The notes beneath the pieces were generated by a model. That model was not told the DNA's origin. It worked only from the letters and a program-made list of their open reading frames with translations, and did not search any database. Shown here in pieces: positions 51,702-63,999 of a DNA stretch of 64,000 bases; the stretch's first letter is position 1; each line of letters starts with the position of its first letter. Source of the DNA: Planctomycetota bacterium (GTDB lineage: Bacteria; Planctomycetota; MHYJ01; WSZJ01); NCBI GenBank assembly GCA_038060895.1, contig JBBTCT010000015.1:64001-128000 (forward strand). The letters run 5' to 3'. The translations under genes and the position numbers were made by a program.

Positions 51702-53720
51702 TCAGCGGCCGAGCGTGAGGTTTGCGATGCGTTCGCCACGGACGATCTCGAGCCGGATTCCCTCGGCCCGTCCTGCAGCCCAGCGTTCGACCAGGTCGGC
51801 GGCCTCGAACTCATCCATCACGACCTCGGGCGAGCCTTCGCCCGAGCGGCGGGAGCGCCAGATCACGTCTCCTGGCAGTAGGCCGGCCTTTGCCGCGGGG
51901 CCTTCGGGGGTGACGCTGACGACGAGGATGCCCTTCTCGAGCATCAGTCGCTCCCGCTCGATGGGACCGATTGCGGCAAGGTCGAGGCCCAATGCGACGC
52001 CCCATTCGCGCCGCGCGGCGACTTCCACCGGGTCGAGCGAAGGCGCACGGCGCCGATTGCCCGGGTACGCATGGAGTTCCTCATGCAGCCGGCGGAACTC
52101 GATGTCCTTCAACGCGCACGCCGCGGCGATTTCCATGGAACCCTGCATGCCCTGCTCGCCATCGCCCCATGACCGCACGGCCCATGTCTCGAGCCAGAGA
52201 GCTTCCTGCCCCCAGGACTCGACGACGCGGGACCGAAGCGCTTCCCCCGAATCCGCCTCCATCAGGGCGTCGTGGAGGTCCCATGCGTCTGGCGCCGGCG
52301 GGACGATGCCGGCGAGCCCGGCGGCGCGGAGGCGGGCCGAGATGAACCCGGCAAGGTCGTTTTCCATCATCGCAGCGCGCCGCGGAGCCTTCTCGGCCGC
52401 GCGCGCCGCCCGCGCGCGGCCCAGCGCCTCGGCCGCCGCTTCGGCCAGTTTCACAATCTGTGCGCGGCGGCCGGGGCCTGGCGGAAGCGTATCCCACGCC
52501 TTGTCGAACTCGCGGCGGATGCCGAGGAGGTCGCGCCAGGCGGACCACCATGGGGCGGGAAGGGATTCGATCTCGAGGATTTCGAGCAGTTCGGCTTCGC
52601 GCACGCCGTCGCCGGGCCGCAGCCGGGCGCGGACACGGAGGCGCGTGGCAGGAACGGCGGCCACGGCATCGCCTTTGAGGAATGCGCGAAGATCGAGGGA
52701 GTCGGATGCGGCGAGGCCGGCCAGCCGCAGATCGTCGGCGAATTTCCAGCCGCCGGCCCGGCCGATCTCGGGGAAGTCAGGCATCGCGCTGGAATAGACG
52801 CGCTGCGCTCCGCCGAGCGCCCCCGCATCCGGCTCGGCGAGAGTCAGTCCCCCGTGGGCGCGCATCAGGAATCCGTCCGCAGTGCGCACCGGGCCGGACT
52901 TCTCCCTCGGGTTCGCGGGTGCGACGGCGCCGCCGCCGCCCGGCGCGGGGCCTTCATTCGAATTGGAGGTGCCGCCGGCCGCGGTGCGCGCATTGGAATC
53001 CTCGACGACACCGGGATTGTCTCGCCCCTTCCACGCCATCCACGCCGCGATCAGGACGAGCAAAGCCGTGGCCGCAGCCAGCGCCGCCGGCTTTCTGCGC
53101 GATTCCGCGTGCCCGGTGGGTCCCGGATGCGTACGCCTCGCCCGAATCCCGTCGCGCACCCGTCCCTCGAGCCCCGGCGGGATGTCCACGGCCCCACACG
53201 CCGACAGCTCCGTCTCGAGCGCGGCGAGCAGCGCCACGGTCGCCGCGCCCGCCAGGACCGACCGGAGGTGCCGAAGCGCCGTGCTGATCCGGCTGGAAAC
53301 CGTTCCTTCCGGGATCTCGAGCGCCGCGGCGCACTCCGGAAGCGTCATCCCCTGGAAGTAGTGCAGGTCCACGGCCGACCGCTGGTCTTCCGGAAGGGCC
53401 ATGACCTTTTCGCGCAACTCTCCGCGGAACGCCGCCTCCGCAGGGTCCGCCCCCTCTTGCGACGTCATCGCGGCCTCTCTTTCCTGGCGGCGTTTTTCGC
53501 CCCGGCGCGCATTCAGCGCGCGGTTCCTGGCGGCGCGAGCCAGCACGGCACGGACGCTGAGGGCCCCGTCGAGGGCGGAAGGATTCTCCAGGACGTAAAC
53601 GAACACGTCCTGGGCGACGTCCTCGGCGGAGGCCGAATCCCGCAGCACGCCGAGCGCGACGCGGTAGACCAGCGCGTGGTGGTCGCGGACGAGGGAATCG
53701 AGCGGGGTCATGGCCGTCAT
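51702..53720 (-). CDS. ECF sigma factor fused to a TM helix and extracytoplasmic region with PDZ domain
   Basis: AEDVAQDVF, LHYFQGMTLPECAAALEIPEGTVSSRIS, a TM helix and GILVVSVTPEGPAAKAGLLPGDVI. Confidence 0.88.
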   Translation of the reverse strand: MTAMTPLDSLVRDHHALVYRVALGVLRDSASAEDVAQDVFVYVLENPSALDGALSVRAVLARAARNRALNARRGEKRRQEREAAMTSQEGADPAEAAFRGELREKVMALPEDQRSAVDLHYFQGMTLPECAAALEIPEGTVSSRISTALRHLRSVLAGAATVALLAALETELSACGAVDIPPGLEGRVRDGIRARRTHPGPTGHAESRRKPAALAAATALLVLIAAWMAWKGRDNPGVVEDSNARTAAGGTSNSNEGPAPGGGGAVAPANPREKSGPVRTADGFLMRAHGGLTLAEPDAGALGGAQRVYSSAMPDFPEIGRAGGWKFADDLRLAGLAASDSLDLRAFLKGDAVAAVPATRLRVRARLRPGDGVREAELLEILEIESLPAPWWSAWRDLLGIRREFDKAWDTLPPGPGRRAQIVKLAEAAAEALGRARAARAAEKAPRRAAMMENDLAGFISARLRAAGLAGIVPPAPDAWDLHDALMEADSGEALRSRVVESWGQEALWLETWAVRSWGDGEQGMQGSMEIAAACALKDIEFRRLHEELHAYPGNRRRAPSLDPVEVAARREWGVALGLDLAAIGPIERERLMLEKGILVVSVTPEGPAAKAGLLPGDVIWRSRRSGEGSPEVVMDEFEAADLVERWAAGRAEGIRLEIVRGERIANLTLGR

Positions 53721-53787
53721 GATGGTAAGACACCACGGACGGCCGGACCCCTCGACAAAATCCGGAATTGTTCCCTCGACTCCCGGC

Positions 53788-56196
53788 TTACGACTTTGCC
53801 GCCGCCGTTTGCGGGCCGTCCGCCGGGATCAGGACACCCTCTCGCTGCGACTCGAGCAGGAGGTCGTCCAGCGAGCGCTTCACGGCCCCGGATCGCTTGA
53901 GCAACTCGCCCAGGACGTTCGCAAGGAAGCGGACGCCGAGGATGCTGGCGTGCTTCACCATCTCGCGGACCTCGGGAGAGAGGCGGTCGATGCGGGCGGT
54001 GACGAGGGAGTTGAGCGAGCCGGGCAGGCGCGCCGTGTCGGAGCTCTTGAGCTTCATCCGGCGGATGACTCGCGTGTGGGTGGCGCCCGAACTCTTCACA
54101 ATGGTCGCTTCCCGGGCGCCCGCAGGGACGAGTTCGCCGGTGTCGTGGACGTGGAGGAGGAGCTGTTCGGTGTAGAAGGGGTTGCCGCGCGCCTTGGCGG
54201 TGATCATGCGGAGCGCTTCGGCGTCGAGTTCAACTCCCATGCCGAGGAGGGCCCGGGCCATCGCGGCGGTGAATTCTTCGCCGGCGATCGGCTGGAGTTC
54301 GATGTCGACGAGCTTGGCCTCGCGGGCGAGTTTCAGTTCCGGCTTGGTGCCGTCGTCGGCGAAGCGGGACGTGGAGACGATGGCGAGGGGGAGGCCGGCG
54401 ATGTTGCGCGTCATGGCCAGGAGCCACTCTGCCGACGATGCGTCGAGCCAGTGGGAGTCCTCCACCTCGATGACGACGGGCGCGACGGCGGCCAGCGCGC
54501 GGACGAGTTCCTTGACCGCGATGATCCGGTTTTCGTGCCGGAGCTTGGGGTCGTCCAGCTTTTCGAACGGCGACCCTTCCCAGTGGCATTCGACCATGTC
54601 GGCCGCGAAGCTCAGCGTGCGCTTCAGCTCGCCGCGCGTGTACTCGGGAACTTTCGGGTTGTCGGTGTATTCCGCGTAGCGCTTCTCGATCGCCTTCTTC
54701 TTCGGGCCCTGGGGCATCCCGTCGGTGACGGCAAAAAAGTTGCGCAGCCAGGTGCCGACGGAATTCCAGCCGGACTTGTGCACGCCGTCGCAGGGCATGT
54801 GGATCCAGTGGAGGCGCTTGCCGGTTTCCTCGAGCCTGGCGCGGAAGGCGGCGGTCAGGCGTGTCTTGCCGAGGCCGGGCTCGCCCAGCAACCGGACGAC
54901 GCCGACGAACTCCGGCGTCGCCGCGAAAATCGGCGCGGCAAAATCGACGAGTTGGCCCAGTTCCTTGTCGCGCCCCAGCATCGGGTACTTGTAGGTGAAT
55001 CCCAGCGCCGAGCCCCGCTTGCTCCCGGGCTCAAACGCCTCTTCCTTCTTCGCTTTTCCCTTCATCTTGAACTTGCCCTTGGACTTCATTTCCCATCCCG
55101 ACTCCGCCGCCTGCTTGACGCGGCCGCTCGCCAGCGTGGCGCCGGTTCCGGCGCTCGCCATGAGACGCGCGCTCGTGTTCACGGCGTCTCCGAGGCACGA
55201 CCACTCGTTGCGACGCGTGCCGCCCACAGGACCCGTGTAGCACAGCCCGGCGTCGAGCCCGATCCGGGCTTTGACGCCTTTGAGCTTCGGAAGAGACGTC
55301 GCGCGGAAGGCCTGGGCGAAAGCGACCGCGTTGCTCTCCGCGTGTTCCGCCGCTTTCGGGGCGCCAAAGAACGCCAGCGCCGAGAACGCCTTGTCACCGA
55401 ACATGATCCGGTTGAGAACGCCTCCCTGACTTCCAATCCCGGTGACCAGCTCCCGGAAGACTCCCTGGATCTGCTCGTGCGTCTTGACCCCCTCGAACTG
55501 CATGAAGGTGCTGGCCACGTGCCGCAACTCCGCCCGGTCGCCCGCTTCGACAATCTCGGAAGGGAAAAACAGCTCCAGCGCGCTCTTCGTCGGCGCCGGC
55601 AACTTGACGGTGGGCGCGTCCGATGCCACTTTGGACGCTCCCTTCAGGACCTTCGTGACCGCCGGGCCCAAACGGACCTGCCCCTTGCGCGCCCCGTGCT
55701 CCGCCTCCGAGGCGCCGTTGATCGCGTCGCCGCGGAAATACCAGGTCCGCGCCTTGCCGTCGGCCGACTGCGGGATGCCCCACTCGATTTTCCCGCGCTC
55801 AAGCCCGCACTTCACGGCAAACCGGATGTTCTTGCTCCCGAGCTTGGCGGTGCCGCGCTTCTTCACGAATTCCATGATTTCGCCCGCGGCATCGCGCGCG
55901 CGCGCGGCGACGGCTACGCCGTCCTTGCCGCTTTCGGCAAAGACTGCCATGAACGCGTCCCCGGCGAAGGCAGCGATAAACCCGCCTCTCTTGTGGACGG
56001 CGTCCACCATCGGGTCGAAGAGCCGCGTGAGTTCCCGCGAGATGACTTCTGCGCCGGAGTCGCCCAGCTTGAAGGCCCGCTCCGTCAGGGGAGTGAAACC
56101 GCTGATATCGACGAACAACGCCGTTCCCGCCAGCGTTCCGCTCTTCTTCCCGGCCTTGTCCTGCTCCTCTACGAAACCCGGAATGTAGTTCTGCAT
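53788..56196 (-). CDS. Tandem class III adenylate/guanylate cyclase plus STAND AAA ATPase, lacking the C-terminal TPR region
   Basis: FVDISGFT, AGDA, GDK, GDAVNTSARLM, GEPGLGKT, EVEDSHWLD, GNPFY and TARIDRL; GGAGAGG RBS. Confidence 0.92.
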   Translation of the reverse strand: MQNYIPGFVEEQDKAGKKSGTLAGTALFVDISGFTPLTERAFKLGDSGAEVISRELTRLFDPMVDAVHKRGGFIAAFAGDAFMAVFAESGKDGVAVAARARDAAGEIMEFVKKRGTAKLGSKNIRFAVKCGLERGKIEWGIPQSADGKARTWYFRGDAINGASEAEHGARKGQVRLGPAVTKVLKGASKVASDAPTVKLPAPTKSALELFFPSEIVEAGDRAELRHVASTFMQFEGVKTHEQIQGVFRELVTGIGSQGGVLNRIMFGDKAFSALAFFGAPKAAEHAESNAVAFAQAFRATSLPKLKGVKARIGLDAGLCYTGPVGGTRRNEWSCLGDAVNTSARLMASAGTGATLASGRVKQAAESGWEMKSKGKFKMKGKAKKEEAFEPGSKRGSALGFTYKYPMLGRDKELGQLVDFAAPIFAATPEFVGVVRLLGEPGLGKTRLTAAFRARLEETGKRLHWIHMPCDGVHKSGWNSVGTWLRNFFAVTDGMPQGPKKKAIEKRYAEYTDNPKVPEYTRGELKRTLSFAADMVECHWEGSPFEKLDDPKLRHENRIIAVKELVRALAAVAPVVIEVEDSHWLDASSAEWLLAMTRNIAGLPLAIVSTSRFADDGTKPELKLAREAKLVDIELQPIAGEEFTAAMARALLGMGVELDAEALRMITAKARGNPFYTEQLLLHVHDTGELVPAGAREATIVKSSGATHTRVIRRMKLKSSDTARLPGSLNSLVTARIDRLSPEVREMVKHASILGVRFLANVLGELLKRSGAVKRSLDDLLLESQREGVLIPADGPQTAAAKS

Positions 56197-56363
56197 CGAT
56201 TTTCCTCTCCCTGCTCGCCAAGTCGGCGAGGCGTCCCACATTAGCAAAGTTCCGCCATTGTTCAATTGCGGGAGATACTGTTACTGCCCGCCCCGATCGG
56301 GGGCCGAACCGTTATCATTCGCGAAGTGCCGCGCGCTGGGCGGCGCAGGGGGAACGCGACGGA

Positions 56364-57746
56364 ATGAGCACGCAGGAGCCGAACTCCACGACCCTGGATC
56401 CGCCGTTGTCCCCGGGGCGCTACGTCGTCGTCCGTGAACTGGGTCGCGGCGGCATGGGCGTCGTCTACCAGGCCCGCGATACCCTTCAGGACCGCCACGT
56501 CGCACTCAAGGTGTTCCCCCTGGACCTCGATTCCGGCGGCGGCACCGAACTGTCCGCTTCGTCCGTCCAGCGCCTCATGCGCTTCAGGCGCGAAGCGACA
56601 TTCGCCGGCCTCGTCCATCCGAACATCATCCGGATCTACGATTTCGGGATCTGGAAGCACGACGGAAGGACCTCGTTTGCCATCGTCCAGGAGATGGTGC
56701 AGGGCATTGCGCTCAGCGATGTCCTGCTGGCAGAACGCGCCGCTGCCGGCTCCTTGCGAAGCGCTTCGCGTGCACGGCTGTTGCGGGATTTCATGCGCGC
56801 CTGCGAAGGGATGTCGTACGCCCACGAGGCGGGAGTCGTGCACCGGGACCTGAAGCCTGCAAACATCCTGCTGGTGCCGGATTACACCCGTGCCCGCGTG
56901 CTGGATTTCGGGCTCGCGAAATGGCTGGGGCGCGCCGACCCGGTTCCATCCGGCGTTTCGTCACAGGAGGACCCGTACCTCAGCATGGAAGGCGCGGTGA
57001 TGGGGACGCCGTTGTACATGGCTCCCGAACAGGCGGCGGGAGCGCTCGAGCGCATGGACGTTCGCGCCGACGTCTGGTCCCTGGGCGTCGTTCTCTACGA
57101 GATTCTCACGCACCAGCTCCCGTTTTCAGGTGACTCCACAGCCCAGGTCCTGTCGCGTGTCGTGAGCGAACCGGCGCCGGCGCCGAACGAGGTCCTCGGG
57201 CGGCTTCCCGAAACGAGCAGGTTCGCCGATCCGGTGCCGAAGGCTCTCGAGGAAATCGTCGGCCGGTGCCTGCGCAGCGCCCCCGCGGAACGCTACCCGT
57301 CGGCTCGCGCACTTCTCGAAGACCTCGAGCGCTACCTCGCCAGCCCCCGCGGCGCCCTCGATCTTCTGCCGCCCGCCGGCCGCCGCCGCTTTGCCGCCGG
57401 CGAATGCATCGCCCGCGAAGGCGAGCCCAGCAACACGATGTACGTCCTCGAGCATGGCCGCGGCACCGTCATCATCGAGAAGGCCGGCTGGTCGCAGAAA
57501 TGCACCGAGGGATTTTTCGGGGAAGCGGCGCTTCTCCGCACCGGCCAGCCGCGCACCGCGACGCTCCGCGCGGGTGACCAGGGCTGCGAGCTGATCGAGG
57601 TCGCGGACGAAGCGACCCTGCTCCGGCTTCTGCACGAATCTCCGCTGATCGGCGTCCAGGCGATCCGCGAGCTGCACTCGCGGCGGGTGCTGGCGGAGGA
57701 GTACTACGTCCGCAGGATCGAGGAGCTCGGGCGCGGAAAAGTCTAG
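56364..57746 (+). CDS. Ser/Thr kinase with C-terminal cyclic-nucleotide-binding domain
   Basis: GRGGMG, HRDLKPAN, DFGLA and YMAPEQ; cNMP domain IAREGE..MYVL..G..FGEAALL..PRTAT. Confidence 0.93.
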   Translation: MSTQEPNSTTLDPPLSPGRYVVVRELGRGGMGVVYQARDTLQDRHVALKVFPLDLDSGGGTELSASSVQRLMRFRREATFAGLVHPNIIRIYDFGIWKHDGRTSFAIVQEMVQGIALSDVLLAERAAAGSLRSASRARLLRDFMRACEGMSYAHEAGVVHRDLKPANILLVPDYTRARVLDFGLAKWLGRADPVPSGVSSQEDPYLSMEGAVMGTPLYMAPEQAAGALERMDVRADVWSLGVVLYEILTHQLPFSGDSTAQVLSRVVSEPAPAPNEVLGRLPETSRFADPVPKALEEIVGRCLRSAPAERYPSARALLEDLERYLASPRGALDLLPPAGRRRFAAGECIAREGEPSNTMYVLEHGRGTVIIEKAGWSQKCTEGFFGEAALLRTGQPRTATLRAGDQGCELIEVADEATLLRLLHESPLIGVQAIRELHSRRVLAEEYYVRRIEELGRGKV

Positions 57747-57758
57747 GTCTCTCCCCAT

Positions 57759-59189
57759 TCACTCCGTGGGTTGCGCAACCTCAAAAGGCGGCATGCCGGC
57801 CCGGACGCAGGCTTGCTTCATGTCCGCGAGCTTGATTTCGGCCTGCCGCGAGTCGCCGATCTCGAGAACCATCCGAAAGCCCTGAATCCAGCTTTCCCTC
57901 GCCGCTTCCACCCGGCCGCGGGTGAGCATGAGGAGCGCGTATTGGCACAGATGAAGGGACTCGAAGCGCCTGCTGCGGACTTCGCGATGAAGGGCCAGCG
58001 CGGCCTCGTAGAAACTCTCCGCTTCATCCAGTCTCCCGGTCTCCGCGTAGAGTGAAGCGAGATTTCCCATCACGATGGCCTCGGAGCGCCGGTTGCCGAC
58101 TTCCCGGTGAAGCGCCAGCGCGCGCCCGTACGTGCGCTCGGCGTCGGTCGCCCTGCCCGTCGCCTGGTAGAGGCTGGCCAGGTTTCCATACACGATTCCC
58201 TCGCCGATCATGTTGCCCACCTCGCGCTTGATTGCGATAGCGGCGTCGTAGGCGCGCTCGGCTTCGTCGAACCGCCCCAACTCCTGGTAGAGCCCGGCCA
58301 GGTTGCCCAGCCCGATGCCCTCGGCGCGCCGGTCGTGGAACTCGCGATTCAGCGCCATGGCCTCCTCGTATCCGCGTTCGGCCTGCTCGACGCGCCCGGT
58401 TTCACGGTGCAGTCCCGCCAGGTTTCCGATCTCCAGGCCTTCGGTCCTCCGGTTGCCGCACTGTCGATGAATGGCCAGCGCCTCCTCGTGCGTGCGCTCC
58501 GCCAGCTCGACTCTTCCCGTCTGCCGGTAGATGTTGGCCAGGCTCCCCAGCGTCATGCCCACCGCGCCCAGGTCGCCAAGTTTCCGGTGGATGGCGAGCG
58601 CCTGCTCGTGGAAGCGCTGGGCCTGTTCCACCCTTCCCGTTGCGTTGTTCAGGACTCCCAGGTACCCCAGGGCGGCGGCCTCGCCGCCCGGGCTTCCGGC
58701 CTCGCGGAAGACGTCCACCGCTTGCGCCAATAGCGGCTCTGCTCGGCCCATCCCGCCGGCCCGGAAGGCCGCGTGCCCGGCTCGCCGCAGCGACTCGCCC
58801 TTCTCCACCCCCGCGACAAGTTCTGAATGTTGCTGCCACAGCCGTTCGGAAGACTGATTCTGGAAGTGCCTCGTGGCGTACTCGGCCGCCCTTCCCAGGT
58901 AGTGTTTCCTGGCCTCGAGCATCGCCTTGCCGCGGGCGGCGGCGGCGTGAAGCGCCAGGCCGGCGTGCTCGGCCAATTCCTCCGCGAATGCGTCCACGGG
59001 GTGGGGAGGGACATCCACACTTCGCGAGGATTCCTGCGGAGGGATGTCCGGCCCCGGTCCGCCTGCCAGCTTCTCGATGACCGCAAACGCAATCGCATGC
59101 AGTCTCGCGCGGTCGCCCGGCAGCTGAAGCTGGTAAGCGGCGTCACGCAGCAGTGCGTGGCGGAACAGGTACGCCTTCTCGGCAGTCAC
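57759..59189 (-). CDS. TPR protein beginning with the STAND winged-helix motif YLFRHALLRDAAY
   Basis: N-terminal YLFRHALLRDAAY..RARLH and about seven 40-aa TPR-like repeats (EG..LGNLA.LY..GR..AE..Y..AL). Confidence 0.9.
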   Translation of the reverse strand: MTAEKAYLFRHALLRDAAYQLQLPGDRARLHAIAFAVIEKLAGGPGPDIPPQESSRSVDVPPHPVDAFAEELAEHAGLALHAAAARGKAMLEARKHYLGRAAEYATRHFQNQSSERLWQQHSELVAGVEKGESLRRAGHAAFRAGGMGRAEPLLAQAVDVFREAGSPGGEAAALGYLGVLNNATGRVEQAQRFHEQALAIHRKLGDLGAVGMTLGSLANIYRQTGRVELAERTHEEALAIHRQCGNRRTEGLEIGNLAGLHRETGRVEQAERGYEEAMALNREFHDRRAEGIGLGNLAGLYQELGRFDEAERAYDAAIAIKREVGNMIGEGIVYGNLASLYQATGRATDAERTYGRALALHREVGNRRSEAIVMGNLASLYAETGRLDEAESFYEAALALHREVRSRRFESLHLCQYALLMLTRGRVEAARESWIQGFRMVLEIGDSRQAEIKLADMKQACVRAGMPPFEVAQPTE

Positions 59190-59199
59190 GCGGGCAGTA

Positions 59200-60483
59200 T
59201 CAGGACGAAAGCAGGCCGGCGGGCTTGAATTCGTGGTTCGGCAGGACGCCGGCGAGCGCCTCGTTTCCCAGGTGTCCCTTCACGACTTCCGCCATGACAT
59301 CGCGGAAATCCGTGGTGTGCATGAGGTCGCGCTTGTCGTGGAGCTGGTCAGGCGCCAGGCCGGGCCAGTTTCCCAGGACGGGCTTGCGTCCCTCGCGCTT
59401 GAGCGACGGCCCCACCGCGAGCAGCACATTGCCCCATCCGTGGTCCGTGCCGCCGGTGCCGTTTTCTTCCGCGGTGCGGCCGAAGTCGGACATGGTGAGC
59501 ACGATGACGTCGTCGGCCTTCTGCCCGAGATCCGTGACGAAGGCCGCGAGCGCTTCCGCCAGTCCCTGCGCGAGATCTCCGTAGGGACCCTGCGCGGCGC
59601 CCTGGAACTGGTGCGTGTCCCATCCGCCGTAATCCACCTCGACGACTTCGAGGCCGACGTCGGCCTTGATCAGGCGCGCGGCCTGCATGAGCTGGCGCGC
59701 GATGTCGGTCTGCGGGTAGGGCATCTTCGGCTCGTATTTCTGCCCGACGATGCCGCGCAGCTTGTCGATTCCTTCGAGCGTCGCCTGGCCGGTGTCCGCG
59801 AGCAGGTCGCGCGCGTCCCCGGTTTTCTTTTTCGCGTCCTTCCGGTACGCGTGCTCGAGCGCCGCGCCGACCGTCGCGCGGTCCGTGCGGCCGTCGGGAA
59901 GACTCAGGTCGTCGATGCCGCGCACTGCGTAGGCGCAGCACTTGCCGTGCATGATGCGGGGAAGCGCTTCGCCGATCGCGACGGCGCGAATGGGGCCGTG
60001 GCCGGTGGAGGTGAGGAGGTGGCGGTTGACCCATCCGTCGGAGTTGATCGTGTTGCCGGTGACGCCGGTTTCCCAGACGTCCTGTTCCTCGAAGTGGCTC
60101 CGGGTGTTGCGGTCGTGGCCGACGGCGTGGATGGCGGCAGCGGTGCCGTCCTTGAAGAAGGGGAGGAGGGAGGCGAGGCGCGGATTCAGTCCGAAGAATC
60201 CGTCGAGATCGATGGCGCGGCCCTCGGCCTTTTCACGGGAGGGGGAGGGGATCTGGATGGACTTGCGCAGCTTCGCGTAGTTCGGGTCCTTCCACGGGAC
60301 GACCAGGTTGAGGCCGTCGACTCCGCCGCGCATGAAGACCAGGACGAGCGTCTTGCCTTTCCTGACGGGCCTTAGCGTGGCCGCGGCGGGTTGATCCTCG
60401 GCGAAGAGGTCAAAGGGAGTGACGCCGAGGTAAGCGCCGATGGCGCCGGAGAGTTTCAGGAAGTAACGGCGGGTTAAGTGCAC
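59200..60483 (-). CDS. DUF1501 family protein (Tat signal)
   Basis: TRRYFLK, FMRGGVDGLN, RSHF, GGWDTH, SDFGRT..NG.GGTDHG and DFRDV. Confidence 0.92.
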   Translation of the reverse strand: MHLTRRYFLKLSGAIGAYLGVTPFDLFAEDQPAAATLRPVRKGKTLVLVFMRGGVDGLNLVVPWKDPNYAKLRKSIQIPSPSREKAEGRAIDLDGFFGLNPRLASLLPFFKDGTAAAIHAVGHDRNTRSHFEEQDVWETGVTGNTINSDGWVNRHLLTSTGHGPIRAVAIGEALPRIMHGKCCAYAVRGIDDLSLPDGRTDRATVGAALEHAYRKDAKKKTGDARDLLADTGQATLEGIDKLRGIVGQKYEPKMPYPQTDIARQLMQAARLIKADVGLEVVEVDYGGWDTHQFQGAAQGPYGDLAQGLAEALAAFVTDLGQKADDVIVLTMSDFGRTAEENGTGGTDHGWGNVLLAVGPSLKREGRKPVLGNWPGLAPDQLHDKRDLMHTTDFRDVMAEVVKGHLGNEALAGVLPNHEFKPAGLLSS

Positions 60484-60517
60484 GGTGAGCTCCTTGGGAG
60501 GAGAAAAACGGCCAGGA

Positions 60518-60594
60518 CTAACTCCAAATCCCAACCCCAATACGCTCGATCAGGTGGCCGCTTTTTTGGGGTTGGGGTTGGAGTTGGGATTTAG
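60518..60594. repeat. Inverted hexamer arrays (CCCCAA-like / TTGGGG-like)
   Basis: CTAACTCCAAATCCCAACCCCAA ... TTGGGGTTGGGGTTGGAGTTGGGATTTAG. Confidence 0.8.
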
Positions 60595-60603
60595 CCTTAA
60601 CTT

Positions 60604-63600
60604 CTACTTCAACCCCACTTCAGGCAATTGCCCGACAAAACTCGCCGCTTCTTTCGCAAGCTCGTCGCGGTTTCCCTTGCACGCCTTCATCACGGACATC
60701 GCCGCTTCATTTGATTCTTCGCTGAGCACTTTCCCGGTCAACTTCACGGCCACCACGTCGATCAGCCACTGCTTCTGCTCTTCCGTCGTTTTTGTCTCCG
60801 CGTTCCAACGGAACGGATTCGGCACCGTCGTGGACAGGATCCACTCGTTTTCCCGTGCGAACTTCCAGCGCTGAAGCGTCGCGTTCGTGCTGGTCCACGC
60901 GGTGTCCTCCTCCTGGAACCCGTCCGGCGTCGGGCGGTCGTAGACGCCGGCGCCGCTCCGGGCGCAGAGGTCGATGACCTGCCAGGGGAGGCGGAAGTTG
61001 ACGCACCGCGAGAGGCGCGCGGCGTGGTCGAACGGCGGCGCGATGCGCTCTTTCAGGCCTTCCCTGAAAAAGGCCGGGTGCTTCGCGAGAGCGAGCAGCA
61101 CTTCCTTCATGTCGCCGTCCGTCTCGAGGTAGACCTTCGCAAGATCCGCCGTCACTTCTTCCGGAGGCGGCCAGCAGATGTAATGCGCCACGAGTTTCGA
61201 GCAGACGAACGTCGCCGTCGAAGGATGCCCGGCGAGCAGTTCGACGGCCATGCGTGCGCGGTCGAATCTCTCCGCGGGGCTGGCCTTGGGGAAAACCATC
61301 CCGATGAAGCGCTGGGGGCGCGCGTCGCAGAGCGCGGGATCGAACCGCCACTTCCAGTCGTCGGCGTACCCGGCTTTCTTGCCGTCGCCTTCGTTGGAGT
61401 ACATCCAGCCCGTGAGGATGTTGGCGAGCGCCGTGACGTCCTTCTGTTCGTATCCGCCATGGACGCCGACGGTGTGGAGCTCGCAGATTTCGCGCGCGTA
61501 GTTCTCGTTGAGGTTGCGCGCGAACGAGAACTGCTGGTCGAGGTACTGCATCATGCACGGGCTCGTCGCCGACGCGAACAGCAGGTCGCGGAACGGCGCG
61601 GCCCCGAGGCGCGTGAAGACGCGGCGTTCCTGCCATTCGGCGCGGCCGCCGGTCTTTCGGATCCAGGTTGAGAAGTGGTTGTCGGTCCAGCGGACGAAGC
61701 GGGTGCGGACCGGGTTGGGGGTGGCGACGGCGTGATAGGCGTCGCGCCCCATGACGTCGTACGCATCGTTGCGGCCGTCGAACACGATGCCCGCGGCGGC
61801 CAGGGCGGAAGCGTCGCCCGGGTCGTCGGGTCCGCGAGAAAGTCGATCGGCGAGGTACGCCTCTTCTCCCATCGTGAGGACGGAAGCCAGCTCTTCCGCA
61901 TCCGGGCCCCAGGCGAACCGGTTGAGGAGGTGGACGGCGCGCTCGTAGCGCGTGATCGTTTCCGGCGCCTTTTCAGGCACGACGAACGTGCGTTCCTTCG
62001 ATCTTCCTTCATGGCCCGAAGTGTCGTTCGCGATGACGACCAGCTTGTGTTCGCCGGGGGCAAGGCCGCGCGCGAGCAGCGGCATCGTGACGCGTCCGAA
62101 CTTTCCCAGCATCTCGCCGCGGATCCCGGTCCGCTTGCCGTCGATTTCGGTGTCCACCCACGCGACCCCGAAGTCGTCCACCGGCATGGCGACCACGGCG
62201 TCCTGCATCCAGACTTCCGCGCCCTCGGGCGGCCAGGCGATCTTCACGCGCGGACCGCGCCCGTCGGCCGCGGGCGGCGCGCCCACGAGAATCAAACCCT
62301 GCAGCATGAAGTTGCGGTCGCCCTTCCCCTCGTCGTACTTGTCGTTGATGAAGGAAATCGAGAGCGTCTTCTTTCCGTCGGGAAGCGCCAGGAGGCCGGT
62401 GAGGTGCGGGTTCCACCATCCTCCGACGTCGATGGAGTTGACCTTGATGTCCTTGCCCCCGGCGTGCAGCACGACGTCCACTTTCGGCGCGCCGTCATAG
62501 TGGTCGCCCTTGGCCTCGATCCAGAGGAGGAACGGGCCGCTCATTCGCTCGGGAAGCGTGAGCGTTGCCGTGCCGTTGGAGGCGAAGCGCGCGTTGAGTT
62601 TTTCTGGGCAATCGCCCTCGGTCGTCAGCGCCTTTCGCGTCTCGTTGTCCCATGCGCGGTCCCGGACGGGGAACCGCAGGAAGGCCATCGGCTTCCGCGC
62701 CGCCGCATCCTTCCACGGCGGGCGCCATGTCACGCGCTGGACTGGCGTGCGCACCGTCGTGCCGTCGTCGAGCATCGCCACGATCTGGAGCGTGTTCTCG
62801 CCTTCCTTCAAGTGCGCGGGGTCGAGCCACCACTTCGGCGTCGCAGAATGCTGCGAAGAAACGCCCGCGCCGTTCACCAGCAGCTCCACCTTCGGCCCCG
62901 CCGACTTTTCCATCCGGCGCCACCAAGTCACGCCGTTGATCTCGACCGTGCCGGGGATCTGTTTGCCGTCAATGTTGTCCGCGAACGCGACGCGCAACGA
63001 ACCCCACGCGTCCCGCCCCGGCGCCATCCCCGCCGGCTGCACCATCGGTCCGCCCGGGTCGCTTCCTTCGCCCGCGCCGCCCTTCGGCCGATCGACGCGC
63101 ACGATGTCCAGCCGGTCCAGGAAGAGGTTCCGGTCGGCCGGGACGCCTGCGGCGAAGAAGTCATTGAGGAAATACGGCGTCAGGACGCGCTCGCCTTTGT
63201 CGAGCCGCACCGGCACGCCCATCAGCACGCGATGCCAGTTCTCGTCGATCAGCCGCACGTTGGTCGCGGGCGGATCCTTGCCGTCGATGATCAGCCCGAC
63301 GGTTGGAAACGCGCCACCCGCGAATGACCCCTTCGCCAGCAGGGCGATCTGGTACCAGCCCGCCGATTCCACGGTGACGTGGAAACACGGGACTGGCTCC
63401 GCACCATACAGGTTCACGTACTCCTCACCGCTCGCCGTGGTGTCAGGGGCGATGTACAGCGGGTCCTTGTTGAAGCGGTCCGGGCGCTTCGATTCGCGCT
63501 GGTCTTCCGCTTCCATTTCGATCGCCTCTCCGTCCGGCGGCTTGAGGACGGTGACGACGATGGTCTCGCCCTCGGTTTCGGTCCCGTCGGACTGGTGGAG

Positions 63601-63999
63601 GATCGGTGTGATTTCGAGCGGGCCGGGGTCGAACCCGGAGACGTCCATGTCGTAGAGAATTCGCAGGGTCGGGCCCCACGCCGTCCCGCTGACGCGCCGG
63701 GGGATCCGCTGCCCGCCGGGATTGAGCCGCAGCGCGTGAGTCGCGCCCGGCCCGCCTGCTTCGGCATCGACTTCAACGCCGACCGCGAGCTTTCCCCACG
63801 CGATGGCGCCGTCGGCAGGGCCGACGACCTCGGGACGGGCGGCGGAAGGGACGCGCGCTTCGACGACCTTGACGGTGATCGAAGCGTCGCCGATGCGAAG
63901 AGGCGTTTCGCCGGCCTTCAGGCCTCGCACACGCAGGTACCCCATCGTGCGGCCCTTCAGCACGGCCGGCGCCGCGACCACTTCGAGCAGGGAAGGGTC
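60604..63999 (-). CDS. DUF1800 family protein with long N-terminal carbohydrate-binding/Ig-like extension (5'-truncated)
   Basis: HLLNRFAWG, WTDNHFS, MMQYLD, NENYAREICELHTVG, YEQKDV, HPSTATFV and PTPDGF; the frame is open to the window edge. Confidence 0.9.
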   Translation of the reverse strand, partial: DPSLLEVVAAPAVLKGRTMGYLRVRGLKAGETPLRIGDASITVKVVEARVPSAARPEVVGPADGAIAWGKLAVGVEVDAEAGGPGATHALRLNPGGQRIPRRVSGTAWGPTLRILYDMDVSGFDPGPLEITPILHQSDGTETEGETIVVTVLKPPDGEAIEMEAEDQRESKRPDRFNKDPLYIAPDTTASGEEYVNLYGAEPVPCFHVTVESAGWYQIALLAKGSFAGGAFPTVGLIIDGKDPPATNVRLIDENWHRVLMGVPVRLDKGERVLTPYFLNDFFAAGVPADRNLFLDRLDIVRVDRPKGGAGEGSDPGGPMVQPAGMAPGRDAWGSLRVAFADNIDGKQIPGTVEINGVTWWRRMEKSAGPKVELLVNGAGVSSQHSATPKWWLDPAHLKEGENTLQIVAMLDDGTTVRTPVQRVTWRPPWKDAAARKPMAFLRFPVRDRAWDNETRKALTTEGDCPEKLNARFASNGTATLTLPERMSGPFLLWIEAKGDHYDGAPKVDVVLHAGGKDIKVNSIDVGGWWNPHLTGLLALPDGKKTLSISFINDKYDEGKGDRNFMLQGLILVGAPPAADGRGPRVKIAWPPEGAEVWMQDAVVAMPVDDFGVAWVDTEIDGKRTGIRGEMLGKFGRVTMPLLARGLAPGEHKLVVIANDTSGHEGRSKERTFVVPEKAPETITRYERAVHLLNRFAWGPDAEELASVLTMGEEAYLADRLSRGPDDPGDASALAAAGIVFDGRNDAYDVMGRDAYHAVATPNPVRTRFVRWTDNHFSTWIRKTGGRAEWQERRVFTRLGAAPFRDLLFASATSPCMMQYLDQQFSFARNLNENYAREICELHTVGVHGGYEQKDVTALANILTGWMYSNEGDGKKAGYADDWKWRFDPALCDARPQRFIGMVFPKASPAERFDRARMAVELLAGHPSTATFVCSKLVAHYICWPPPEEVTADLAKVYLETDGDMKEVLLALAKHPAFFREGLKERIAPPFDHAARLSRCVNFRLPWQVIDLCARSGAGVYDRPTPDGFQEEDTAWTSTNATLQRWKFARENEWILSTTVPNPFRWNAETKTTEEQKQWLIDVVAVKLTGKVLSEESNEAAMSVMKACKGNRDELAKEAASFVGQLPEVGLK

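Follow-up and report, generated by a model that had tools for sequence, protein, structure and literature searches.

We consider it probable, at roughly 0.6, that an ancestral protein resembling soluble adenylyl cyclase (sAC) was split in the wing loop of its winged-helix domain (WHD), giving a single-copy enzyme core and a multiplied set of sensors that dock on it in trans. The evidence comes from three neighbouring genes in the window, namely the whole 64,000-nt stretch of planctomycete DNA analysed here, and from their relatives in other genomes; it suggests one enzyme core and many exchangeable, fast-changing sensors with a common plug.

The gene P0001 (53788..56196, minus strand) encodes an 802-aa protein in which an sAC-type C1-C2 cyclase is followed by an immune-receptor-like STAND NOD cut in the WHD wing; the open frame spans 53788-56265 on the minus strand, and the ATG at 56196 gives the 802-aa product. 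P0002 (57759..59189, minus strand) has a GTG start and encodes a WH-TPR protein of 476 aa that consists of a plug, an arm-like helical region and TPRs. Between the two halves lies P0003 (56364..57746, plus strand), divergent from P0001 and convergent with P0002, which encodes a 460-aa Ser/Thr protein kinase that ends in a cNMP-binding domain. A Shine-Dalgarno-like GGAGAGG (56204..56210, minus strand) lies 7 nt ahead of the P0001 ATG, and a -10-like hexamer GATACT (59196..59201, minus strand) lies 6 nt ahead of the P0002 GTG, overlapping the DUF1501 stop codon. The first-pass annotation had described an opposite-strand cNMP-domain kinase between the halves and a separate initiation signal for each of them, and both were recovered here.

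The cyclase half and the position of the cut

Pfam assigned Guanylate_cyc to P0001 in two stretches (6.9e-17) and AAA_16 (5.3e-11; 43.7 bits against a cut-off of 32.6). The tandem class III cyclase domains occupy 55027..56139 (minus strand), and the translated protein carries FVDISGFT and FAGDA in C1, and FGDK and GDAVNTSAR, which includes NTSAR, in C2. The best solved relatives of both C1 and C2 are structures of human soluble adenylyl cyclase ADCY10: a phmmer match to 4oya/4clf covers residues 24-90 (C1) and 222-348 (C2) at E 3.1e-13, and the FVDISGFT and FAGDA strings are identical to those of sAC. Among 42 P0001 orthologues, D30, D80, N340 and R344 never vary and at least 90% keep K269; following the sAC literature, we take D30/D80 to be the metal-binding Asp pair, K269 the substrate Lys, and N340/R344 the transition-state residues. 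Judged by sequence, P0001 is an sAC-type C1-C2 class III cyclase, for which cAMP synthesis is predicted.

The STAND nucleotide-binding domain (54379..54978, minus strand) contains a Walker A motif, GEPGLGKT, and a Walker B motif, VVIEVED, both invariant in the 42 orthologues, and the helical-domain GxP motif GNPF (G671, N672, P673, F674) is likewise invariant. P0001 itself therefore shows two of the features by which STAND proteins are recognised, the P-loop NBD with Walker A/B and the GxP motif. Likeness to solved STAND folds was found on a fused relative rather than on P0001 alone: Foldseek matched the relative to 4clw (E 3.4e-18), to 6mfv_A (PH0952; E 6e-15 over 759 columns), which ranks first among the folds without a cyclase, and to Apaf-1 (3shf; E 1.1e-8). 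A complete WHD, with the wing hairpin and the conserved His in one chain, is not found in P0001, which keeps the N-terminal four-fifths of the domain (53821..54039, minus strand), with three helices followed by GVLIPA as the first strand of the wing. Alignment with fused paralogues and the model of a fused relative place the second wing strand and the next helix outside P0001. P0002 and its paralogues begin with these elements, which take up their first 20 residues, and only the two chains jointly, in a predicted complex, make up the full WHD.

The C-terminus of P0001 reads ...EGVLIPADGPQTAAAKS before the stop codon; in the 42 orthologues, E786, G787 and V788 are invariant, the first wing strand EGVLxPA is conserved right to the cut, and the tail past A792 is variable. 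The relatives of P0001 form 42 database clusters of 52-100% identity, all 773-808 aa long; the next relatives are far longer, with 1302 aa (39% identity) and 1400 aa (38%). On the fused relative P0171, residues 24-814 of P0001 align to residues 1-776 and residue 1 of P0002 aligns to residue 783; the halves also abut on P0172 and the G069 protein, and the junction in the closest fused relatives (38-41% identity) coincides exactly with the boundary between the two genes. In an AlphaFold2 model (pLDDT 91.3) of one fused relative, 1103 aa long, the cut falls in the loop between the two WHD wing strands (a low-confidence loop at 764-774, between strands 761-763 and 775-778). P0001 is the sole ORF in its genome that ends at this point of the WHD, and the cyclase half is a conserved single-copy fission product. 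Motifs, Pfam matches, coordinates and alignments thus bear out the earlier description of two class III cyclase domains and a STAND NTPase that stops mid winged helix, of a second gene that opens with the missing piece before its TPRs, and of halves that are continuous in intact proteins.

The plug-TPR family and its distribution

The N-terminus of P0002, YLFRHALLRDAAY, corresponds to the strand and helix missing from P0001 and is followed by the TPRs (TPR_12 at 3.9e-49, plus other Pfam matches). The plug, residues 1-31, (M)TAEKAYLFRHALLRDAAYQLQLPGDRARLH (59097..59189, minus strand), is the best-conserved part of the plug-TPR family, with an almost invariant segment of 25 residues. Fourteen positions are invariant in 43/43 family members, and Y7, F9, R10, A18, Y19, P24 and H31 are invariant across 91 database sequences. 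Because these residues are fixed while synonymous codons vary freely, with a dN/dS of 0.10 over the first 40 residues, the plug is under constraint at the protein level. It reads FRHA where the canonical latch reads HD, and one paralogue reads FRHD at that position; the plug His may therefore be the MHD His, an assignment that draws on position and on this paralogue rather than on a structural alignment at residue level. The plug motif reads AE.AYLFRH...AAY.LQ.P in P0171, P0172 and the G069 protein, and PGERExxFRH...AAYSLLP in the other paralogues; the genome encodes approximately 15-20 full-length cyclase-STAND-TPR paralogues.

Approximately 55 stand-alone plug-first paralogues, P0002 included, were counted in the genome against one wing-cut NOD, in line with the modular sensors that had been proposed from the sequence. 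Related genomes gave 13-78 plug-TPR matches (16-40 in a further count). The copies are both dispersed and tandem, share a conserved 5' block, and include truncated relics. Translation of nearly all copies begins 6-7 codons before the 25-residue segment. The start codon lies 6-9 codons ahead of the plug motif in 46/52 loci, and a TANNNT hexamer stands 6-8 nt ahead of the start in 23/49 members, as against 0-1 at each other offset; at exactly the offset of P0002 (6 nt) it was found in 18 further members. Since a -10 box lies exactly 6 nt before so many starts, the plug-TPR mRNAs are probably leaderless. The sensors diverge quickly: the median best identity between congeners is 45% for the sensor family and 83% for P0001.

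Of the congeners, 6/7 carried the truncated cyclase with the same end point, as did 17 genomes belonging to a second family (f66). Among 401 genomes of the phylum, 20 carried both the truncated cyclase and the plug-TPR family, one carried the TPR family only, and 379 had neither split component; G069 carries the fused gene. As only two lineages are involved, this co-occurrence amounts to approximately two independent observations. The dN/dS values were 0.12-0.24 for the cyclase half, 0.245 for P0002 against its G003 orthologue, and 0.16 for the kinase. Both halves are thus under purifying selection, and the split is neither unique nor decaying.

G000 and G002 alone have a WH-TPR gene beside the cyclase gene, the two copies being just 48% identical, and such a neighbour was found at 0/9 second-family loci. 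Because adjacency is not conserved, there is no operon evidence. The first-pass annotation had treated the two genes as the pair that reconstitutes one protein; the complementarity of the halves stands, but P0002 is one of approximately 55 such genes, is not a dedicated partner, and does not form a locus-level pair with P0001.

Predicted docking, proposed mechanism and alternative explanations

The interaction between the halves that had been anticipated from the sequence was also predicted by structure modelling. Three runs on the P0001-P0002 complex gave ipSAE values of 0.68, 0.68 and 0.70, the best of three controls gave 0.00, the partner pLDDT was 87, and at least 93% of contacts were common between runs. 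The ipSAE mark was reached by 116/157 solved complexes and 2/215 mismatched pairs; this calibration is to be read with the tool's warning that halves of split genes pass through likeness to intact solved STANDs, and with the fact that our run covered one paralogue and used our own alignments instead of the tool's calibrated ones. In the predicted interface, plug residues 4-22 contact P0001 residues 747-762 and 787-792, with further contacts at the P-loop (440-441) and at the GxP site (674), so that P0002 is predicted to bind P0001 through the plug. In the solved TPR-STAND PH0952, the tip of the wing and the N-terminal end of the next helix touch the NBD and its P-loop, and the main autoinhibitory element is the arm (PMC6468293). 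The bacterial AfsR keeps a His latch whose mutation results in autoactivation (bioRxiv 10.64898/2026.09.02.748808).

Taken together, we infer the following course of events. The ancestor would have had the order C1-C2 cyclase, STAND NOD, arm and TPR sensor, and its fission would have taken place in the wing-hairpin loop of the WHD. P0001 may have stayed single-copy with the effector, NBD, HD and most of the WHD, while the C-terminal product, which has the second wing strand, then the helix opened by the conserved His (a latch of the MHD type), and finally arm and TPR sensor, may have become its own transcription unit and then multiplied to dozens of diverging paralogues, P0002 among them. Any family member could dock on P0001, complete the wing beta-hairpin and supply in trans the elements that hold the STAND closed on ADP. 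A ligand on the sensor TPRs would then release the latch, followed by nucleotide exchange, oligomerisation and cAMP synthesis, and in this genus the neighbouring cNMP-binding kinase would be the likely reader of the signal.

In its fullest form, this mechanism would make the locus the core of a hub-and-spoke receptor repertoire, in which one sAC-like cyclase NOD takes any of dozens of rapidly diversifying TPR sensors, each of which completes the WHD wing with a beta-strand and brings an ADP latch (the His-helix) and an arm, so that autoinhibition and ligand specificity would be exchangeable in trans. We put this forward as a tentative proposal that could well be wrong; a point against it, and against the mechanism as a whole, is that approximately 55 sensors would compete for one hub, and a strong response to a single ligand is then hard to account for. 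If true, it would represent a combinatorial array, either resembling innate immunity or sensing the environment, with a single cAMP output, and a natural model for the control of soluble adenylyl cyclases by STAND modules.

The same observations can be read differently. The plug-TPR family may be independent of P0001 and act as TPR scaffolds or regulators, with an N-terminus that is left over to cap the arm and TPRs or that binds another common partner, P0001 being a sensor-less and differently regulated cyclase. This reading is unlikely, but it deserves real weight: adjacency to P0001 is not conserved; G006 (85% complete) has 36 plug-TPR members and no P0001 orthologue was found in it; sensor-less NODs exist in the genome (C20:50409-51965); and in intact STANDs the helix after the plug position also packs on the arm (PMC6468293). 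An unpaired wing strand, however, would hardly stay invariant in all the paralogues and database sequences compared. Moreover, the truncated cyclase occurs in 20/21 genomes with the family and 0/379 without it, and both the predicted complex, with its controls at 0.00, and the conservation of the first wing strand up to the cut argue for a partnership. It is improbable that the solos instead act on the fused cyclase-STAND-TPR paralogues, for example as competitors or decoys for the WHD strand of these proteins. Many such paralogues with a related motif are encoded in the genome and some solos lie beside fused genes (C22:298295/299725, C5:103633/109886), but a strand offered in trans should lose out to the one already present in cis, the fused paralogues are widespread in genomes without the solo family, and the plug is closest to P0171, P0172 and the G069 protein, P0001's own fused relatives, rather than to the motif of the other paralogues.

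The dispersed and tandem copies with their common 5' block, together with the truncated relics, would also suit silent or semi-silent cassettes that recombine into an expression locus and swap the sensor end of a STAND, like the orphan toxin cassettes of polymorphic toxin systems. We regard this as very improbable. The synonymous sites of the common block vary freely, and therefore no long DNA identity is available for recombination; most solos begin with a start codon of their own at a fixed offset, often with a -10 box; a stop codon ends P0001 in every orthologue, and no recent fusion was seen among them; and selection on P0002 is purifying. That the split is an assembly artefact, or a pair of decaying pseudogenes, is hardly credible. 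The source is a metagenome-assembled genome (47 contigs, 86.5% complete), but 20 genomes and 42 database clusters show the same truncation, and dN/dS is far under 1 in both halves. A 14,040-nt contig of a possible source run spans 53700-59300 without differences, and independent DNA contigs, from another study, cross 53733-53972 and 57331-57788 with zero differences. Misassembly, which the first-pass annotation had named as a refuting condition, is therefore contradicted for the P0001 stop and the kinase/P0002 junction; for the P0002 5' junction (59189/59200), no identical bridging contig was found among the independent ones. The split of an sAC-like ancestor remains our preferred reading.

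The neighbouring kinase and comparison with known systems

In P0003, Pfam identified Pkinase (7.7e-41) and cNMP_binding (1.3e-10), the latter carrying FGEAALL..PRTAT. The cNMP-kinase lies beside the cyclase gene in G000, G002, G004 and G007 (4/6 assessable genus genomes) and at 0/9 second-family loci. Since adjacency is confined in this way, reading of the cyclase signal by the kinase, which the first-pass annotation had proposed, would be local to the genus. RNA-library contigs without differences fall on all three genes, which is only a hint of expression, as contaminating DNA is a possible origin.

Many sensors feed one signalling core in NAIP-NLRC4 and in plant sensor-helper NLR networks, and domains of plant Rx complement one another in trans; separately expressed NLR fragments can work. 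In these systems the sensor and helper partners are each complete with their own NOD, or the split is laboratory-made; here, in contrast, the cut is natural and runs through one domain, and complementation would involve one beta-strand and a helix. ADCY10 is the best match in sequence and fold through its tandem C1-C2 class III cyclase, at an identity of only approximately 20%. In both ADCY10 and P0001 the cyclase pair continues into a STAND-type P-loop module, and a STAND domain is predicted in sACfl (PMC12802110). One chain holds the entire architecture in P0171, P0172 and the G069 protein, which are fused planctomycete relatives; unlike ADCY10 and bacterial cyclase-AAA_16-TPR proteins, the chain studied here is cut in the WHD wing, and arm and sensor form a separate multi-copy family.

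The order NBD, HD, WHD, arm and TPR is shared with TPR-sensor STANDs of the MalT, PH0952 and AfsR type, in which wing, His-helix and arm mediate autoinhibition, as described for PH0952/AfsR (PMC6468293; bioRxiv 10.64898/2026.09.02.748808). In that group, one polypeptide contains a single sensor and a DNA-binding or other effector, whereas the autoinhibitory and sensor parts would here act in trans, in approximately 55 variants. The fast-diverging sensor family also resembles Avs, antiviral STAND proteins whose TPR-like sensors bind phage proteins (PMC13581612), but the effector here is an sAC-type cyclase instead of a nuclease, protease or similar. PADLOC matched no Avs model and returned only generic PycC, TPR and kinase-domain matches, the cyclase domain giving weak matches to PycC, the cyclase of Pycsar (2.5e-17).

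Finally, the kinase, P0001 and P0002 cover positions 17-268, 382-814 and 829-1231 of TIGR03903 (TOMM kinase/cyclase fusion, 1267 positions). Membership was rejected for all three proteins, whose scores (111.9, 67.1 and 17.2 bits, respectively) are far below the cut-off of 705.75 bits. Because the three genes match successive parts of this model, a single-chain kinase-cyclase-NTPase-TPR relative does exist; the present locus differs from it in having three separate genes and a cNMP-binding domain on the kinase.

A cyclase-STAND protein divided in its winged helix

Three genes fill positions 53788–59189 of the window: the cyclase-STAND half, P0001 (53788–56196, minus strand; 802 aa with the ATG at 56196 as start), in which Guanylate_cyc matches in two stretches and an AAA_16 NTPase domain is also present; a Ser/Thr kinase that ends in a cNMP-binding domain, P0003 (56364–57746, plus strand); and the TPR half, P0002 (57759–59189, minus strand; 476 aa), which starts (M)TAEKAYLFRHALLRDAAYQLQLPGDRARLH and continues into TPR_12-type repeats. 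The first-pass annotation had described a cyclase-STAND protein separated from its TPR part, and the genes, the motifs and the position of the cut that it named were all confirmed. Read along the minus strand, the TPR gene comes before the cyclase gene, which agrees with the permuted order that it had reported, and the two initiation signals it had proposed, GGAGAGG before P0001 and GATACT, 6 nt ahead of the P0002 GTG, were recovered. The start of P0002 is located 10 nt past the stop codon of a DUF1501 gene, and the -10-like hexamer of P0002 overlaps with this stop codon.

The closest fused, single-chain relatives in the public protein collection were P0171 (1302 aa, 39% identity) and P0172 (1400 aa, 38%). 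Residues 24–814 of P0001, counted here from an upstream TTG, aligned with residues 1–776 of P0171, and residue 783 of P0171 aligned with residue 1 of P0002; at the cut position P0172 has SAEDAYLFRH, and ...RVILPEAMRGAAGAEAAYLFRHALMRDAAYHLHLP is found in a third fused relative, encoded in genome G069. The G069 protein (1103 aa) was modelled with AlphaFold2 from an 80-row alignment (mean pLDDT 91.3, pTM 0.77); in this model the winged helix is canonical, with helices at 713–725, 731–740 and 748–757 and strands at 728–730 and 761–763. The first wing strand is followed by a loop (764–774, with pLDDT <50 at 767–771), a strand (775–778, AYLF) and a helix (781–788), and a histidine is located at the start of this helix. 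Since the model puts loop 764–774 between strands 761–763 and 775–778, the cut is a clean fission, in which the wing hairpin is divided in its loop between P0001 and P0002. No Pfam WHD family matched over the junction of P0171 or P0172 at E <= 1.

The Foldseek search with the G069 model matched its N-terminal 460 columns to human soluble adenylyl cyclase (4clw, E 3.4e-18) and the remainder to the TPR-sensor STAND PH0952 (6mfv_A, E 6e-15, 759 columns) and to Apaf-1 (3shf, E 1.1e-8). The NOD (NBD-HD-WHD) match was found by this fold search and not by the PDB sequence search with P0171, which at E <= 0.001 returned TPR and cyclase entries only and no NOD structure. In the sequence search with the cyclase region of P0001, ADCY10 ranked first, and C1 and C2 were matched separately. 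Because of these ADCY10, 4clw and STAND fold matches, and because PMC12802110 places a predicted STAND module after C1–C2 in full-length soluble adenylyl cyclase, the architecture is that of the full-length enzyme.

The gene for the cyclase half is stable and present in single copy. In the genome of the window (G000), P0001 was the sole ORF stopping after the first four-fifths of the WHD, 9 residues past the profile match, and all other matches to that profile ran on for at least 44 residues. Orthologues were found in six of the seven congeneric genomes (72–86% identity), all of them with ...EGVL[IV].A close to the C-terminus and about 8 variable residues after it. The protein collection contained 42 clusters at 52–100% identity, every one 773–808 aa long, along with two further clusters marked partial; the next matches were fused proteins at 38–39% identity. 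In the 42-row alignment, the Walker A, Walker B and GxP motifs were invariant, as were the metal-binding and transition-state residues of the cyclase. The dN/dS values of P0001 against three congeners were 0.12, 0.16 and 0.24, with 0.13–0.29 over the WHD segment.

The search of G000 for a second wing-truncated NOD found none; of the two candidates considered, C20:50409–51965 was rejected for its complete WHD and C22:125213–127204 for its continuation into other domains. The former (plus strand, 519 aa) consists of a NOD and a complete WHD (ELLFRHDLLREAA) with neither arm nor TPR, and is a sensor-less STAND cut elsewhere than P0001.

An amplified and fast-diverging family of plug-TPR proteins

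The main new fact of this study is that the sensor half belongs to a large, fast-diverging and independently transcribed family, which co-occurs genome-wide with a single truncated core. The search of G000 with P0002 gave 143 matching stretches, dozens of which begin at query residue 1–3 and lie in open frames of 460–620 aa, at 40–53% identity; the fused cyclase-STAND-TPR paralogues reached only about 30% identity. By motif scan, 60 loci were found in this genome, with the motif near the start of a solo-size (stand-alone) frame in 55 and at residue 517–574 of 1059–1317-aa proteins in the other 5. ATG, GTG or TTG was present 6–9 codons upstream in 46 of the 52 loci with the family-specific motif, and exactly 6 codons upstream in 35 of these 46.

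The N-terminal residues 1–31 of this family, referred to here as the plug, comprise the second wing strand and the His-helix of the WHD. Across 43 full-length members, the segment from residue 7 to residue 31 has 14 invariant positions, whose codons nevertheless varied, with six different codons used for Arg10, and mean conservation was 0.85 and 0.79 over residues 1–40 and about 0.5 elsewhere. In the 91 database relatives, Y7, F9, R10, A18, Y19, P24 and H31 were invariant. Homogenisation of the plug at the DNA level was considered and rejected because synonymous codons vary; the constraint acts on the protein sequence of the plug and not on its DNA.

One P0002 orthologue was recognisable in the congener G003 (67.6% identity), at a different locus where the synteny check placed neither DUF1501 nor the kinase nearby, and dN/dS between the two was 0.245 for the whole gene and 0.10 for residues 1–40. 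The best G000–G003 identity within the family had a median of 45%, in a comparison where 20 of the 29 G003 loci gave a full-length protein and orthologues may be missed; P0001 is 83% identical between the same genomes. The closest paralogue within G000 had a median identity of 47% and a maximum of 53%. Repeat-unit entropy (92 units, with 13 of the 43 proteins giving none) showed a conserved scaffold with variable positions, an analysis too crude to back diversifying selection.

A TANNNT box ending 6–8 nt before the start was found in 23 of the 49 members with a start codon (6 nt in 18, 7 nt in 4 and 8 nt in 1), compared with 0–1 members at each other offset from 0 to 59, and the GATACT of P0002 sits at the same offset. 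Such spacing is that of a -10 box serving a leaderless transcript. Further members lie in tandem arrays in which the stop of the previous gene overlaps their own start codon. Another subset (C16:88141–89571, C6:40988, C22:348473, C34:36711 and C15:154357) is without the box and has a common upstream DNA element that translates as FDSLR (TTCGACTCGCT...), present as a tandem 24-nt repeat before the C16 copy. Four others (C5:111739, C5:117144, C24:138548 and C35:61720) have another leader in common, about 40 nt in length, in which CTCAAYACTCC is abundant and which ends ...CCG ATG; this suggests a second promoter or 5' UTR class in the family.

With the first 100 residues of P0002, 13–78 matches were obtained in each of the 8 genus genomes and none in 32 other genomes of the order or class, save 2 weak matches in G023. 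Among 401 phylum genomes searched at E <= 1e-80, the truncated cyclase-STAND was present in 20, namely G000, G002, G003 and 17 of a second family, f66, in frames of 791–919 aa apart from contig-edge fragments, and the fused form in G069. The plug region (E <= 1e-8) was found in these 20 genomes and in G006, and G069 gave a single match, which is the fused gene itself; in G006, a genome 85% complete, no P0001 orthologue was found. Five near-complete f66 genomes had 16, 23, 40, 20 and 37 plug matches and one truncated cyclase each. The co-occurrence is nearly perfect; it rests on two lineages and therefore amounts to about two independent observations.

In G000, two truncated plug fragments lie inverted and face to face at C2:15069–15590 (minus) and C2:15404–16921 (plus), one continuing into an unrelated ORF, and these appear to be relics of family turnover. 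In the database protein P0070 (798 aa), a relative in the plug region, TPRs occur together with an APH-type kinase domain (PF01636), and the plug may therefore be joined to different modules in other proteins. Many f66 matches cover plug residues 1–45 only, which hints at more diverse C-terminal parts in that family.

Predicted docking and a possible mechanism

The complex of P0001 residues 395–802 (42-row alignment) and P0002 residues 1–476 (91-row alignment) was predicted with ipSAE of 0.68, 0.68 and 0.70 in three runs and 0.00 for the best of three controls. In the calibration of the method, 116 of 157 solved complexes attained this mark, as did 2 of 215 mismatched pairs, and split-gene halves tend to pass it through their likeness to solved single-chain structures. 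Partner pLDDT was 87, and at least 93% of the contacts were common to the runs. The lowest-error contacts joined residues 7–19 and 30–34 of P0002 with residues 747–758 (WHD helix 3) and 789–791 (first wing strand) of P0001; further predicted contacts involved the P-loop (440–441), the segment after Walker B (586–587) and the GxP site (674), and the TPR loops 285–288, 323–327 and 362–365 of P0002 touched the NBD. The geometry is that of the closed, resting state of PH0952; as described in PMC6468293, the NBD and P-loop of that protein are touched by the wing tip and by the N-terminal end of the helix after it, and autoinhibition comes mainly from the arm. The prediction shows that the halves are compatible, not that they bind. 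The proposal that the two parts complement each other in trans has passed every computational test run; P0002 is not half of a local gene pair.

P0001 is without the second wing strand, His-helix, arm and sensor, the full set of elements by which a STAND is kept closed on ADP. By its position, the plug histidine would be an MHD-type latch, and the plug presumably resembles the plant CRMHDLLRD motif. The sensor-less paralogue at C20:50409–51965 has ELLFRHDLLREAA at the latch position. Bacterial AfsR retains F/Y-H-D, and its HD-to-GV mutant is autoactive, as given in bioRxiv 10.64898/2026.09.02.748808. We propose that a family member may plug into P0001 and close it, and that ligand binding by the sensor TPRs would release it. 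With about 55 sensors and one acceptor, a repertoire of specificities could converge on one cAMP output, for which the divergently transcribed cNMP-binding kinase P0003 would be the obvious candidate reader in this genus.

STAND/NLR-type switches have so far been understood as single chains, in which sensor, arm and winged-helix latch close the ATPase in cis. A natural, conserved cut in the wing, with the latch-arm-sensor half at 13–78 copies per genome, would show that autoinhibition and specificity can be supplied in trans and that one signalling core can serve a whole sensor repertoire. Such a pair would be an experimentally simple system for studying STAND activation, with two soluble proteins and a cyclase read-out, and would open a bacterial route to the STAND module of full-length soluble adenylyl cyclase, which still lacks an explanation; PMC12802110 reports that no regulator specific to this full-length form was found. 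It would also be a reason to re-annotate hundreds of database proteins: 224 clusters, among 1625 candidates, matched the family at E <= 1e-5, and public records, from metagenome-assembled Planctomycetota genomes, name them only 'tetratricopeptide repeat protein' or 'hypothetical protein'.

NCBIfam and PADLOC gave only sub-threshold or generic domain matches. The kinase, P0001 and P0002 matched successive segments (17–268, 382–814 and 829–1231) of TIGR03903, the TOMM kinase/cyclase fusion, all far under the cut-off. The open-access literature searched, including passages of PMC7159879, PMC13581612 and PMC6468293, yielded no account of a STAND that is split in the wing and has an amplified sensor family; in PMC13581612, 'split proteins' are mentioned in the methods only.

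Gene neighbourhood and expression

The local gene arrangement is not conserved. Only in G000 and G002 does a WH-TPR gene separate DUF1501 from the kinase, and these two copies are 48% identical, while the flanking genes are 84–92% identical. The kinase adjoins the cyclase gene without an adjacent WH-TPR gene in G004 and G007, and neither gene is beside it in G005 and G001; in G003 the cyclase gene is at a contig edge and its neighbourhood is not assessable. A P0003-type kinase thus adjoins the cyclase gene in four of the six assessable genus genomes. Within 6 kb on each side of nine f66 loci, neither an adjacent WH-TPR gene nor a cNMP-kinase orthologue was found, and two of these loci had a 36%-identical kinase aligned over the kinase domain only.

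Contigs without differences from two RNA libraries of one aquifer sample fell on all three genes: at 53775–54138, 55026–55302, 55783–55988 and 56151–56463 on P0001, at 56674–56911 and 57495–57797 on the kinase, and at 58436–58610 and 58739–58900 on P0002. Parts free of such contigs, for example 54261–55008 and 58936–59300, are uninformative either way. Expression of the three genes is only hinted at, because RNA libraries can contain DNA. Independent DNA contigs confirmed the stop region of P0001 and the kinase/P0002 junction.

The kinase P0003 has a single-chain, PKA/PKG-like arrangement with the kinase part first, and its phosphate-binding cassette is intact (FGEAALL..PRTAT). Directly downstream of P0001, a minus-strand gene (51702–53720) encodes a 672-aa protein that begins with an ECF sigma factor, represented by regions 2 and 4, and has a long extension and a weak C-terminal PDZ match, and this gene is syntenic in G002 at 65% identity. 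On the other side of the locus, at 59200–63999 (minus strand), the DUF1501 protein comes after a DUF1800 protein in which two stretches are CBM60-like, the usual planctomycete pair.
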